Source: an uncultured Acidobacteriota bacterium (GTDB lineage: Bacteria; Acidobacteriota; Thermoanaerobaculia; UBA5066). From it: a stretch of 64,000 nucleotides of DNA. The stretch is from assembly GCA_963779415.1 (NCBI GenBank), contig CAVZYA010000002.1, positions 1,536,001-1,600,000 on the forward strand. Reading direction: 5' to 3'. The stretch's first letter is position 1, and every line of letters starts with the position of its first letter. A model generated the notes under the pieces. The model saw only the letters and a list, made by a program, of their open reading frames with translations. It searched no databases and was not told the DNA's origin. Made by a program: the position numbers and the translations under genes. Below are positions 55,937 through 60,438 of the stretch, in pieces.

Positions 55937-56902
55937 TCAGAGCGCATCGAGGGGGCTCCGGACACCGCGTCCTCCTGCCTGGTTCAGGACGTGAGTGTAG
56001 ATCATCGTGGTCGTCACATCCCGGTGTCCCAGCAGCTCCTGGATGGTCCGGATGTCGTAGCCCCCTTCCAGGAGATGCGTCGCGAAGGAGTGGCGGAAGG
56101 TGTGGCAGCTGACCGACTTCGGGATGCCGGCTTTCCCGGCCGCCTCCTTGACCGCTTTCTGGATGGTCGTCTCGTGAAGATGGTGGCGGCCGGTGCGTCC
56201 GGTGCGCGGATCGGTGCTGAGGCCGGGCGCCGGAAAGGCGTATTGCCAGGCCCACTGCCGGCTCGCGGCCGGGAACTTCCGCGTCAAAGCATCGGGGAGC
56301 CACGTCTCGCCGAGACCGCGCTTGAGATCGGCGTCGTGAAGAGACTTCACCTCGACCAGATGCTGGCGAAGCGTCTCGGAGAGGGAGGCCGGAAGCATCG
56401 TCCGTCGGTCCTTCTGCCCCTTGCCGTCGCGGACGAGGATCTGGTTGAGGGCGAAGTCGAGGTCCTTGACGCGGAGGCGAAGGGCCTCCATCAGCCGCAG
56501 GCCGCTGCCGTAGAGAAGGGTGGCGACGAGGCGCGGGGCGCCGTCGAGGCGGGAGAGGACGGCCTTGACCTCGGCGGGGGTGAGGACGACGGGAAGGCGC
56601 GCGGGGCGGCGGGCGCGGACGACGTCGCCGAGAGACTCGAGCGGCTTCCCGAGGACGTCGCGGTAAAGGAAGAGCAGGGCCGAGAGCGCCTGGTTCTGGG
56701 TGGAGGCGGCCACCTTCTTCTTCACCGCGAGGTCGGTGAGAAAGGCATTGATCTCGGCCTCGCCCATCTCGTCCGGATGGCGCTTGCCGTGGAAGAGGAC
56801 GTACCTTCGGACCCACGCGACGTAGGCCTCCTCGGTCCGCAGGCTGTAGTGTCGCGCGCGGAGGGCGGCGCGGAGGCGGTCGAGAAGGCGGGGCTTGTCC
56901 AT
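55937..56902 (-). CDS. intI: Integron integrase
   Basis: [31 protein letters not shown] and the IntI-specific insert [24 protein letters not shown]. Confidence 0.97.
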
Positions 56903-56913
56903 GGCGTTGCTTC

Positions 56914-57339
56914 TTACTTCCGTGCCGATCCTGCTCTTTCTTCCCCGCTCTTGCGCTTCGTGCGGCGGCGGGACTCCGGCCGCCGGCGTGGCCGGGCTCC
57001 CTTTGGCCGGGCATGTCTCGGCTCGTAGACGCCGAGCGTCCCCCCGCCGGGGAGGGTGACCCGGGTCAACAGCCCCCAGCCCAGGTTCTGAACGGGACTG
57101 CAAGGAACCCCGTGCCGGGCCATCGCGGAGACGAACGCTTTGGCGTCTTCGCAGATGAAATAGAACTCGTGGAGGTCGTTCTTCCGGGACGGATGAACCG
57201 CCACCTCCGCGGGCGGCAGGCCGAAGATGAGCCAGCTGTCGCCGACATCGACGTGCGGGAGCCGGAGGACGTCCCGAAGGAAGGCCCGGTCGGCCTCGGG
57301 CTTGCGGCTGTAGATGATCGAATGGGCGCCCGTGATCAT
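56914..57339 (-). CDS. VOC/glyoxalase family protein
   Basis: [11 protein letters not shown]...[10 protein letters not shown]...GWG...LGVYEPRH. Confidence 0.85.
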
Positions 57340-57347
57340 GTGAGCCT

Positions 57348-57827
57348 CTATTTTTCTTTCGCCTGCGCCGCCGCGCGGCGGGCCATCTCCTCGGGGGAGA
57401 CGTCCTCGATGTGGGTGGCGAAGCCCCACTGGTGGCCGAAGGGGTCCTTCAGGAAGCCCATCCGGTCGCCGTAGAACTTGTTCGTCACGGGCTGCATCTC
57501 GGTGGCGCCGGCCGCGAGGGCCCTCTTGAAGAAGGAGTCGACGTCCTCGACGTAGACGAGCATCGAGAAGGACGTCCCTCCGAGCGTGTCGGGGGAGAGC
57601 GCGTGCATGGCCGCGTTCTCGTCGGCCAGCATGACGCGGGCCTTGCCGACGGAGAACTCGGCATGCCCGACCTTCCCGTCGGGGCCGTCCATGCGGACCT
57701 CCACCTTGGCTCCGAAGGCGCGCTTGTAGAAGTCGAGGGCCTTCGCGGCGCCCCGGATGTAGAGGTAGGGGGTGGCCCCCTCGGCGCCGGCGGGGATGGG
57801 GGCGGGTTTGGTGGCGGCTGTGGTCAT
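57348..57827 (-). CDS. VOC family protein (PhnB-like)
   Basis: TPYL...[40 protein letters not shown]. Confidence 0.9.
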
Positions 57828-57898
57828 GGTCGTCTCCTTTCCATGGGGCTTTTCGTTGAGATCCGGTCTCGATTGTTCCTCTCGTTTCACCGGATTGC

Positions 57899-59448
57899 CT
57901 AGTCGTAAACGCCATCGGCGAACCAGTCGCCGCTCTTCGTGTCGCGGTAGATGCGGCAGAGGGGGCCGGCGGAAAGCTCGACGTCCCAGTAGTCGCGGGC
58001 GACCCCTTCGCCGGTCCACCACGCCTCCTCGAGGTGCCACGGGCCGGAGGCGACGCGGACGGCTCCCGCGATCTCGGGCGTCCCCTTTGCCGGCTCGGCC
58101 GCGAGCGTCTTGAGGGAGACGGGGCGCGGAGAGATGCCCGACGCGTTGTGCCGTTGCCGTTGCCGTGGCCGTTCCCCTCCACGATCACCTCCAGCGCCAG
58201 CGGCGGGCGGAGGACGCGGACGGCGAGGAGGCCGCGCCCTTCGCGCGGGGGCCTGCGTTCCACGGGCGCCGGCGGCGGGGCCCACGGCACGAGGGCGAAG
58301 CGCTCGGGGCGGTGGCCGTCGACGGTGCGGGGCGACCCGACGCGCCCCTCGCCGAGGAGGGAGAACAACCGGGCCATCGCGGTGGCCAGCTTGTCGGGGG
58401 AGATCTCGGCCGGGCCGAAGAGGGTGAGCTGGCCGGGGCGCGGGGCGTCGGGGTGGGCGGTGAAGGAGAAGCCCGAGACGGGGGCGCCGGGGGGCTTCGA
58501 TTCGAGGCTGAGGCGAAGAAGGGAGAGGAGCGTCTTCGTGTCGCGCGTCGGGGCGGGGAGGGAGAGGCTGCGCGCGTCGTGGCCGTCGGGGTCGAGGGAA
58601 AGCTCGACGTCCAGCTTCACGCAGCCGGCGGCGTGGTCGGCGAGGCGCCGGACGAGCCGCTCGAGGGCCGCGGCGGCGATGCCGAGGAAGGGCTCGAGGG
58701 TGACGAGGGGCCACTCCAGGCTCGTCCCCTCGGTGAAGCCGGGGGGCGGCCTTCGCGGGACGAAGGGGCGCGGGTCGAGGCCGCGCGCCACGTCGTGCAG
58801 GGCGCGCCCCGCCTCGCCGAGGCGGCCGGCGATCTCCGAGGCGGGGAGCTTCGCGAAGTCGCCCACGGTGGAGAGGCCCCACCGGAAAAGGGTGCCGGCG
58901 AGGCCCATCTCGGGGGCGAGGCGCGAAAGGGGAAGGGGCGCGAGGAAGGGGGCCTCGCCCCCCGCGGGGACGACGACGGGGGAGTCGGGGAGCCCGGCCG
59001 CCACCTGCGCCGCGAGCTTGCTCGACGCGATGCCGCAGCGGGCGGGGAGCCCTTCGCGCTTCGCCGCGGCGACGAGGGCGCGGCCGAGGTCTCTCTCCTC
59101 GGGGAAGTGGCGATGGAGCCCGTCCAGGTCGATGTAGACGACGCCCTCGCCACCGTCCTCGACGCGCGGTGAGATCCGCTCGGCGGCGTCGAGGAGGGCT
59201 TCGGCGGCGGCGCGCTCGGCGGCCTCGTCGCGGCCGCGGGCGACGAGCTTCGGAAGGATCGCCCGCGCCTGCGGAAGGGTCATGCCGGGGCGCAGCCCCG
59301 CCTTCCGCGCCGAGCGCGTGGCCGCCACGAGGCGCGCGGCGTGGCCGTTGCCCGCGAAGACGGCGGCGGCCGTCCCCGCGAGCTCGGGCTCACTTCGCAG
59401 CCGCGCGGCGAGCGGAAACATCGGAACGAGAAGACAGGCGAGACGCAT
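57899..59448 (-). CDS. imuB: ImuB/Y-family polymerase-like protein (frameshift near 58150)
   Basis: GLRPGMTLPQARA, SPRVE, clamp-like QLTLF, C-terminal GPWHLEEAWW...RDYWDVE...GVYD in the second frame. Confidence 0.88.
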
Positions 59449-59650
59449 AAAGGTGAGCGATCAGGGAGGTTCTTCTACCGGCCAACGCTCGGCGCCAGGA
59501 GAGTCGGGTAAGCACTAGCGCCTCGCTCGGCTCAGCGAGCGCGGACGACTTAGAGCATCTCCCGCGCGTCCCCGGGCGCGCTCGCTTCGACGTGGCCGCA
59601 CGGAGAGTCCCGCCGGTCGTTGCAGGAGATCGCTTTCGTTATTTTTTTCT

Positions 59651-60391
59651 TTAAAGAAATACTTCCTTGCATTCGAAGAGGCATGGCTTCGAAGCTCCCC
59701 GGGCGCGGCCGCGGAGCTTTTCGAGAAAGAGGCGCGAGGAGAGGCCGAGGAGAAGGGGAAGCGCCGCGCGGCCGCCAGAGGAGCCCGAGACGGAGCGGCT
59801 CCAGCCGGCGCGCGTCCCGCCGGCCGCGACGACGGCCTCGGCCGCCGGGCCGGTGACGTGGAAGGGGGAGAGGACGAGAAGCGCCGCGCCGTGCGATTCG
59901 GCCGTCCGCGAAAGGCGGAGGAAGGCGAACTCGTGCCGCGCGCGCCTCCAGAGCGAGATCTTCGACGTGGCGAGGCCGAGGTCGAGGACGACGACCGGGA
60001 CGCCGGCGGAAAGGAGCGTCTCGGCCGCAAGGAGCGCCTCTTTCAGCGTCCGCGGCCGGACCCAGAGGAGGCGCGGAAGGTCGGTCCCGAAAGCCGCGGC
60101 CGCTTGAGGGTCGAAGTGGTCGCCGAGGTCGACGAAGGCCGCCGCCTCGCCCCCCTCCGTCGCTGCGGCGAGGACGGAGAGGGCCAGGGAAAAGCGCCCC
60201 GACGAGCGGCTCCCCGTCAGCTCCACCAGCGTCCCGCGCGGGAGGCCCCCGGCGAGGAGACGGTCGAGGGGAGGGACCGCGGTGGGGAGTGCCTCCCTCT
60301 GCCGCAGCATCGCGCCGCGCCGCGCGAGATCGGCGGCGCGCACCAGTTGGCGGGAGACGTCGTCGGGAAGGGGCAAAGAGGGCGGGCTCAT
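59651..60391 (-). CDS. imuA: ImuA/RecA-like protein
   Basis: LDRLLAGGLPRGTLVELTGSRSSGR (degenerate Walker A), FDP, LPRLLWVRP; upstream of imuB. Confidence 0.82.
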   Translation of the reverse strand: MSPPSLPLPDDVSRQLVRAADLARRGAMLRQREALPTAVPPLDRLLAGGLPRGTLVELTGSRSSGRFSLALSVLAAATEGGEAAAFVDLGDHFDPQAAAAFGTDLPRLLWVRPRTLKEALLAAETLLSAGVPVVVLDLGLATSKISLWRRARHEFAFLRLSRTAESHGAALLVLSPFHVTGPAAEAVVAAGGTRAGWSRSVSGSSGGRAALPLLLGLSSRLFLEKLRGRARGASKPCLFECKEVFL

Positions 60392-60409
60392 GGCATTTCC
60401 GGGATGGAA

Positions 60410-60438
60410 AACGTAGGCGCAATAAAGACGTAAGTCAA
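60410..60438 (-). promoter_or_regulatory. Sigma70-type promoter of imuA
   Basis: - strand TTGACT-17 bp-TACGTT. Confidence 0.75.

Follow-up and report, generated by a model that had tools for sequence, protein, structure and literature searches.

Given the position of an integron integrase gene (intI) behind imuA and imuB in the genome of an uncultured Acidobacteriota bacterium of the class Thermoanaerobaculia, we wondered whether the integrase is expressed together with this mutagenesis operon from one DNA damage-controlled promoter, or whether the genes are neighbors without shared control. The locus lies in a stretch of 64,000 nucleotides of contig CAVZYA010000002.1 (the window), which belongs to contig C2 of the three contigs (C1 to C3) of the source genome, G000 (4.36 Mb, 68% GC). 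Other genomes are likewise given G numbers, with G003 the closest relative, loci are given L numbers, and f1, f2, and f3 are families of the order. A sequence-only reading of the window had placed imuA, imuB, two VOC genes, intI, attI, and the cassettes on the minus strand in this order, the genes being 202, 71, 8, and 11 bp apart, and had noted that intI shares the orientation of its array; our analysis bears out both statements, as intI, attI, and the attC sites are all encoded on the minus strand. The same reading proposed a single damage-induced transcript across the operon and intI. Our comparison with related genomes leads us to favor, with moderate confidence, cotranscription of intI from the imuA promoter, and thus SOS control of the integrase, in G000 and its family, and to regard cotranscription in the second family (f2) as variable.

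The linkage of imuB and intI is not unique to this assembly; uniqueness was an outcome that the sequence-only reading had named as speaking against its proposal. Among the 33 members of the order with matches to both genes, 18 (17 of 32 without the unpublished G025) carry intI on the same strand as imuB and at most 2.5 kb behind its matched part, which is how we define linkage. These comprise 10 of 17 genomes in f1, 8 of 11 in f2, and none of 5 in f3; genomes lacking a match for either gene were excluded, including G099, in which a truncated intI abuts imuB. In other orders of the class, none of the 25 genomes with both matches shows the linkage when inspected by eye, many of these assemblies being fragmented. 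The loci retrieved from GTDB with ImuB, four of whose 19 duplicate genomes already in our set of relatives, place intI behind imuB in 15 cases; in the remaining four, two contigs end early, one carries an attC array without intI, and one carries neither. A quick tree of IntI, built from 56 rows and leaving 15 of its 53 inner branches open (integrases lacking a single long in-frame match were not included), largely tracks the host families, and unlinked copies are nested among linked ones. This pattern fits vertical inheritance of the linkage with later separations, without showing a single origin. Elsewhere in the Acidobacteriota, intI is located 1.7 to 5 kb behind imuA-imuB-dnaE2 in four genomes of one genus and is divergent from lexA-imuB-dnaE2 in one of 40 loci of other classes. 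Another cassette gene order is found at L245 and L115 (G016 and G020), where a boxed lexA directly follows imuB.

If the integrase occupies the place behind imuB, where is dnaE2? The sequence-only reading took it to be absent, which holds for the window, but not for the genome: the suggested search elsewhere found an intact dnaE2 on contig C3 (PRK05672, 1239 bits, cut-off 939), under its own copy of the box described below. The gene is present in 37 of 41 relatives, and the linked ones reveal its relation to the integron. In six of the seven linked relatives that have both genes on one contig, dnaE2 is located downstream of intI on the same strand, at distances of 28 kb in G033, 28 kb in G003, 44 kb in G037, 72 kb in G027, 131 kb in G031, and 223 kb in G017; in the linked relatives, attC arrays lie behind intI and a box lies ahead of dnaE2. 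In G003, imuB, intI, the array, and dnaE2 form one uninterrupted run, which agrees with the window in its first part, as far as about position 40800, where the synteny ends, and with C3 in its second part, up to dnaE2. The flanks of dnaE2 on C3 resume the G003 order where the window leaves it. Against this picture stands G021, where dnaE2 is on the same contig yet not downstream of the array. In eight relatives without the imuB-intI link, dnaE2 is 0.6 to 2.3 kb from the matched segment of imuB; in three others (G029, G039, and G040), the distance is 15 to 18 kb, with no intI in between. Since dnaE2 is found beyond the array in the relatives, the gene order indicates that the integron is located between imuB and dnaE2, splitting the imuA-imuB-dnaE2 cassette rather than replacing dnaE2. 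Judged by the same gene order, the location of dnaE2 on another contig in G000 goes back to a later break.

We then turn to the promoter that would drive the operon. In G000, the promoters of imuA, lexA, and dnaE2 share the sequence TTGAC followed by the direct repeat TTRCG-N6-TTRCG, and a hexamer resembling a −10 element sits 17 bp downstream of the −35 element. The core is found upstream of lexA in 29 of 30 loci, of dnaE2 in 21 of 30, of imuA in 39 of 45, and of intI in 3 of 44; these counts drop loci without a match (four for imuA, five for intI) and include some short upstream regions and a few duplicate loci. A position weight matrix (PWM) built from the lexA, imuA, and dnaE2 sets, with the consensus CTTACGCCTTATTTACGCCTA and an 11-bp period, scores 32.2 at the imuA box; elsewhere on the minus strand of positions 55700-60540, a single site scores above 0, with 7.4 at 60445, just upstream. 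Over the whole of G000, seven sites score at least 13, the four strongest being those of dnaE2, imuA, a radical-SAM gene, and lexA. A strict pattern yields 15 sites in five genomes, two to four per genome, compared with 4 for a reversed control, and these sites are located at lexA, imuA, dnaE2, the radical-SAM gene, and one unlinked intI. LexA carries what we take to be intact cleavage and catalytic motifs. We infer that the direct repeat is a putative LexA operator. The box also precedes radical-SAM repair-type genes (TIGR03916-like) in G000 (C2:1,490,148), G003, and G028, including loci L335 and L339. A further observation concerns the end of the box, GCCTA and often GCCTAAC (window 60418-60410 and homologous promoters), which equals the attC core, a likeness that may be a coincidence with the −10 element.

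Two negative results weigh against the assignment to LexA: the box is missing from recA both in G000 and in all five relatives checked, and genome-wide, the bare core is no more frequent with its 6-nt spacer than with spacers of other lengths (9 versus 1 to 10). The case for a LexA box therefore rests on position and conservation. With a boxed radical-SAM gene and a recA without the box in all six genomes examined, the predicted SOS regulon is small. The operon could then be real and the direct repeat the site of another damage regulator, an option that draws on the unboxed recA, on the fact that the operator assignment is made from sequence, and on the situation in another family of the class, f11, in which imuA follows a different, palindromic motif. 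In this family (L215, L216, L218, and L220), a TTGACAAC...GTTGTCAA-like motif takes the place of the direct repeat; it separates imuA from a small regulator-like gene in divergent orientation and possibly reflects a non-LexA control of the mutasome. We consider another regulator at our locus quite improbable, since in 29 of 30 genomes lexA carries the box between its own −35 and −10 elements, the usual signature of autoregulation, and since a direct-repeat LexA site has been reported by electrophoretic mobility shift assay in Balneolaeota, whose regulon also contains a radical-SAM gene (PMC7739468).

Is intI, then, on the imuA transcript? The clearest indication comes from comparing linked and unlinked integrases. 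Within 200 bp upstream of intI, a scan with the lineage PWM, the only motif used here, found a box in none of the 28 linked copies (none of 27 without G025) and in 9 of the 17 unlinked copies of the order. No LexA box within about 100 bp upstream of intI, as in a LexA-boxed intI promoter, is seen in the window, where the best score near intI is −1.4. In G010 and G110, intI is located directly behind the box beside etfB, and imuAB has relocated and is found together with dnaE2 elsewhere. Spacing points in the same direction: in G012, intI starts within imuB, with an overlap of 17 nt, intI abuts the imuB stop in G008, G017, and G021, which belong to one genus and have a methionine a few codons in, and the gap measures 70 bp in G014. 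No terminator-like site was found in any intergenic spacer of the window, the few terminator-like matches inside genes being near chance level. The earlier claim that the window leaves no room for an intergenic intI promoter holds within the 11-bp gap, but intI may have a promoter within VOC2 or the 71-bp spacer; a stock promoter scanner called none in positions 55000-61000. The proposal of a single damage transcript is thus backed by the conserved linkage, by the contrast between unboxed linked and boxed unlinked integrases, and by the abutting genes, but it does not hold universally, given the terminators, candidate promoter, and inserts in part of the second family. The locus lacks a LexA-boxed intI promoter yet probably works like one, and point mutation and gene shuffling probably share one switch.

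Several observations weigh against this reading. The nine boxed unlinked copies comprise seven from one family and two from one genus, that is, about two to three independent events, so that the Fisher P value of 3e-5 for boxed linked versus unlinked copies overstates the contrast. A terminator (hairpin and U-tract) precedes intI by 96 to 99 nt in G035 and G095. In 14 f2-type loci, including G025, the sequence CGACAA, followed by an AT-rich tail, is conserved just before the intI start and may be a separate intI promoter; at loci such as L078, L081, L087, L182, and L197, we noted CGCGACAA 40 to 70 nt upstream of the intI match, the AT-rich tail ending at the start codon. In many relatives, toxin-antitoxin-like pairs, MarC, VOC, and other genes are located between imuB and intI and may bring their own promoters (among these inserts, only MarC and an addiction-module component match families above cut-off, the PIN and ribbon-helix-helix labels being our own reading). 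Finally, the unlinked intI genes of G029, G039, and G040 have no box within 200 bp, so SOS control of intI is not obligatory.

These observations could also be read as a neighborhood without shared control, in which a single insertion after imuB was inherited vertically, the imuB-intI interval is a hot spot for insertions, and intI is transcribed weakly from its own non-SOS promoter or from that of a VOC or toxin-antitoxin gene. One ancestral insertion would explain the conservation without selection for coregulation, and the terminators, the f2 motif, the boxless unlinked integrases, and the variable cargo between imuB and intI, which includes decayed attC sites in G027 and L081, all agree with it. 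We nevertheless hold it to be rather unlikely, because separate elements have no room where intI overlaps or abuts imuB (G012, G008, G017, and G021), because the box stayed with intI after imuAB had relocated (G010 and G110), and because the CGACAA motif is absent from the window and from f1. Next to no credence is given to a third explanation, raised by the sequence-only reading, that ImuA and ImuB resolve IntI recombination intermediates and that the genes are kept together for this purpose. Its support does not go beyond adjacency, against the background that cassette insertion is resolved by replication. Speaking against it, related integrases are apart from imuB in 15 of 33 relatives, and the retention of imuAB is explained by the presence of its known mutasome partner DnaE2 in most relatives. 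In addition, ImuB has been described as catalytically dead (PMC6511836). The suggestion was therefore not borne out.

The explanation that we favor starts from what is observed, namely the gene order, its conservation, the motif positions, and the location of dnaE2 beyond the array in relatives, and adds regulatory steps that we infer. A chromosomal, sedentary integron whose integrase is co-oriented with its array (the “inverted integrase” type) would have settled between imuB and dnaE2 in an ancestor of two Thermoanaerobaculia families, and its integrase would have become the last gene of the imuA-imuB operon. LexA would bind the direct repeat between the −35 and −10 elements of the imuA promoter; upon DNA damage, its self-cleavage would release one transcript over imuA, imuB, both VOC genes, and intI. 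IntI would then shuffle cassettes at attI, and ImuA and ImuB would join DnaE2, induced from its own copy of the box. Growth of the array would have pushed dnaE2 away, and the later break in G000 would have separated it fully. The coupling between imuAB and intI would accordingly be regulatory, not biochemical.

IntI scores 469 bits against TIGR02249 (cut-off 265), is the sole integrase above this cut-off in G000, and matches IntI4 of PDB 2a3v (E=1.6e-90); residues R136, K161, H267, R270, H293, and Y302, which we take to be catalytic, are invariant in all five aligned sequences. The predicted attI core, GTTGGGC, lies 197 bp past the intI stop, and a GTT-core site with a similar preceding motif also follows intI in most relatives. 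Of the attC sites in the window, three are intact and two are interrupted by insertion sequences (IS), with further remnants beyond these; relatives carry long arrays. By the IntI, attI, and attC tests, the locus classifies as an integron, and by the co-orientation of intI with attC, it also falls in the inverted integron-integrase group. A search for a cassette promoter (Pc) found no consensus promoter in the window; several f2 loci show, by eye, a TTGAC-17-AAGTT-like spacing ahead of attI. Read-through from intI into the cassettes may or may not occur: two loci have attI just 15 bp from the intI stop, but several others show this promoter-like spacing.

The attI region resembles one in G002 and a second one in G000 itself, at C1:750.4 kb. 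The latter (C1:750,370-751,200) has no intI, is 85% like the window attI over 47 bp, and is followed by an attC left half running into the same IS end as at window position 54730. Further lone attC halves are found in G000 at C1:1,361,813 and at C2:146,510, 287,450, and 1,305,986. In the window, the consecutive attC sites at 51519-54751 are each interrupted by an IS, one of the IS110 family and one IS3-like (a label read from the open reading frames [ORFs]), and a close homologue of the IS3-like element is present in the G003 array. Over positions 40813-49760, attC decay grows stepwise with distance from intI, the genes still being co-oriented; several of them are shared with G003, which suggests cassettes fixed as ordinary genes. 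In G027 (L172/L171) and L081, a decayed attC is located between imuB and intI, indicating a cassette once on the “wrong” side of the integrase.

With respect to the mutagenesis genes, G000 has the gene content of an imuA-imuB-dnaE2 mutasome, comprising a RecA-like ImuA, an inactive Y-family ImuB with an ImuB-C domain, and DnaE2 in the genome. ImuA reaches 47.9 bits against NCBIfam ImuA_translesion, under the cut-off of 150, and its place ahead of imuB is conserved. ImuB carries the sequence QLTLF, presumably a clamp-binding-like motif. An alignment with three relatives shows imuB to be frameshifted near position 58150, with the C-terminal 82 residues in another frame. Because 11 of 56 orthologous genes taken from G003 are also frameshifted in the G000 assembly, this is probably, though not provably, an assembly error; the high indel rate calls for caution with any apparent pseudogene in G000. 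The 202-bp spacer between imuA and imuB is common to G002 and G004, is not a repeat within G000, and is skipped by one sediment contig. The contigs of four DNA runs, compared at 85% likeness, come from related strains, and none spans the whole stretch. VOC1 occupies the same position in the genus-level relatives (G002, G003, G004, and L077), and contigs from two sediment runs join it straight to intI. VOC2 was not found at the corresponding place in G002, G003, or G004; it has no Pfam or NCBIfam match, and we call it VOC-like on account of its ESM Atlas feature matches of 0.98. We rejected the idea that VOC1 and VOC2 are cassettes, as the part of the window from imuA to intI holds no scoring attC half-site. 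Coordinates and neighbors are collected in Table 1.

Table 1. Features of the imuA-imuB-intI locus and its surroundings (positions in the window)
Feature	Coordinates	Strand	Basis or detail
imuA promoter	60410..60438	-	sigma70-like, read from sequence; −35 TTGACT 60438-60433, 17-bp spacer, −10 TACGTT 60415-60410
Putative LexA operator, TTACG-N6-TTGCG	60433-60418	-	direct repeat between −35 and −10 of the imuA promoter
imuA, RecA-like accessory protein, 246 amino acids	59651..60391	-	Pfam RecA, E=9e-15
imuB, Y-family polymerase homologue with ImuB-C domain	57899..59448	-	Pfam IMS, E=3e-20
VOC1, VOC/glyoxalase family	57348..57827	-	Pfam Glyoxalase, E=2e-17
VOC2, VOC-like, variable insertion	56914..57339	-	ESM Atlas, 0.98 to VOC clusters
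intI, integron integrase, 321 amino acids, intact, no box of its own	55937..56902	-	TIGR02249, 469 bits
attI region (predicted)	55733..55936	-	core GTTGGGC 55739-55733, preceded by GTCTACTACTA
attC of first cassette, 80 bp	55258..55337	-	GCCTAAC...GTTAGGC ends; bottom-strand hairpin −12.0 kcal/mol
Second attC, split by IS110-family element	53133..54751	-	left half 54751, right half ~53170-53133; Pfam IS110 domains; transposase on plus strand
Third attC, split by IS3-like element	51519..52804	-	left half 52804, right end 51525-51519; two ORFs 52728-51545
attC, 66 bp	50425..50490	-	hairpin −22.1 kcal/mol
attC, 70 bp	48942..49011	-	hairpin −19.2 kcal/mol
Old cassettes: run of small co-oriented genes, attC sites decayed to remnants	40813..48890	-	sequence, gene map, comparison with G003
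etfB, divergent housekeeping neighbor	60533..61309	+	Pfam ETF; same place in most f1 loci, marking the locus in f1

How does this arrangement compare with known systems? Repression of integron integrases by LexA as part of the SOS response was reportedly described by Guerin et al. in 2009. The integrases of class 1 and Vibrio chromosomal integrons are LexA repressed (Cambray et al. 2011, PMC3108266), and our locus would resemble them in linking integrase expression to DNA damage via LexA. The difference lies in the position of the box, which in class 1 and Vibrio integrons is part of the promoter of intI itself, whereas the linked intI is unboxed here and would be the last gene of imuA-imuB under the direct-repeat motif. 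Cambray et al. looked for boxes from −100 to +50 around intI, using the motifs available at the time, and the words “operon,” “dnaE2,” and “imuA” occur zero times in the main text of their paper (PMC3108266). The co-orientation of intI with attI and the array is shared with the inverted integron-integrase group, described as paraphyletic, and its example, the reverse integron of Treponema denticola (Cury et al. 2016, PMC4889954; bioRxiv 10.1101/2020.05.09.085589). For the latter, these descriptions give a 556-bp upstream spacer, a putative promoter of its own, and no detected LexA motif, whereas here intI is located 11 bp behind the previous gene and overlaps imuB in G012. In Mycobacterium tuberculosis, imuA-imuB and dnaE2 occupy separate loci, both under LexA (PMC3901139 and PMC6511836). 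The cassette is similarly split in our case, but the separating DNA consists of an integron, its array, and decayed cassettes, and the integrase takes the place of dnaE2 behind imuB.

With respect to the operator, the LexA box of Alphaproteobacteria is GTTC-N7-GTTC. Together with the direct-repeat LexA box of Balneolaeota, TTACACATATTTTWTACATA (PMC7739468), it shares with our motif the direct repeat and a small regulon around error-prone polymerases and a radical-SAM gene; the consensus and 11-bp period of our putative operator differ from both. A full-text search judged by titles and the beginnings of abstracts, with supplements (such as those of Cambray 2011 and Cury 2016) and most subscription papers outside its scope, found no publication on intI in an imuAB operon or on this direct-repeat motif. 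Each of the ingredients, an SOS-controlled intI, a co-oriented integron, and an imuAB/dnaE2 cassette that is split, is thus known separately, and the locus would represent a new variant of SOS-controlled integrons whose mechanism we propose from its genes and motifs.

Beyond this locus, it is tempting to speculate that integrons repeatedly and independently gain SOS control beside or within an error-prone polymerase operon rather than via a LexA box of their own, and that in this order a single promoter serves the integrase as well as the accessory genes of the mutasome and reaches the first cassettes by read-through; we put this forward tentatively, as a possibility that may well not hold. 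If true, many environmental integrases considered “unregulated” would be SOS controlled by their operon position. With the putative operator 3.5 kb upstream, before imuA, and with a motif of its own, a search near intI could miss such regulation. If intI is indeed cotranscribed, stress-timed cassette shuffling would be more general than has been counted, and point mutagenesis and gene shuffling would share a switch. The locus further yields a candidate LexA box and a small regulon for a class of Acidobacteriota, and the insertion of an integron would provide a concrete cause for split imuAB/dnaE2 cassettes.

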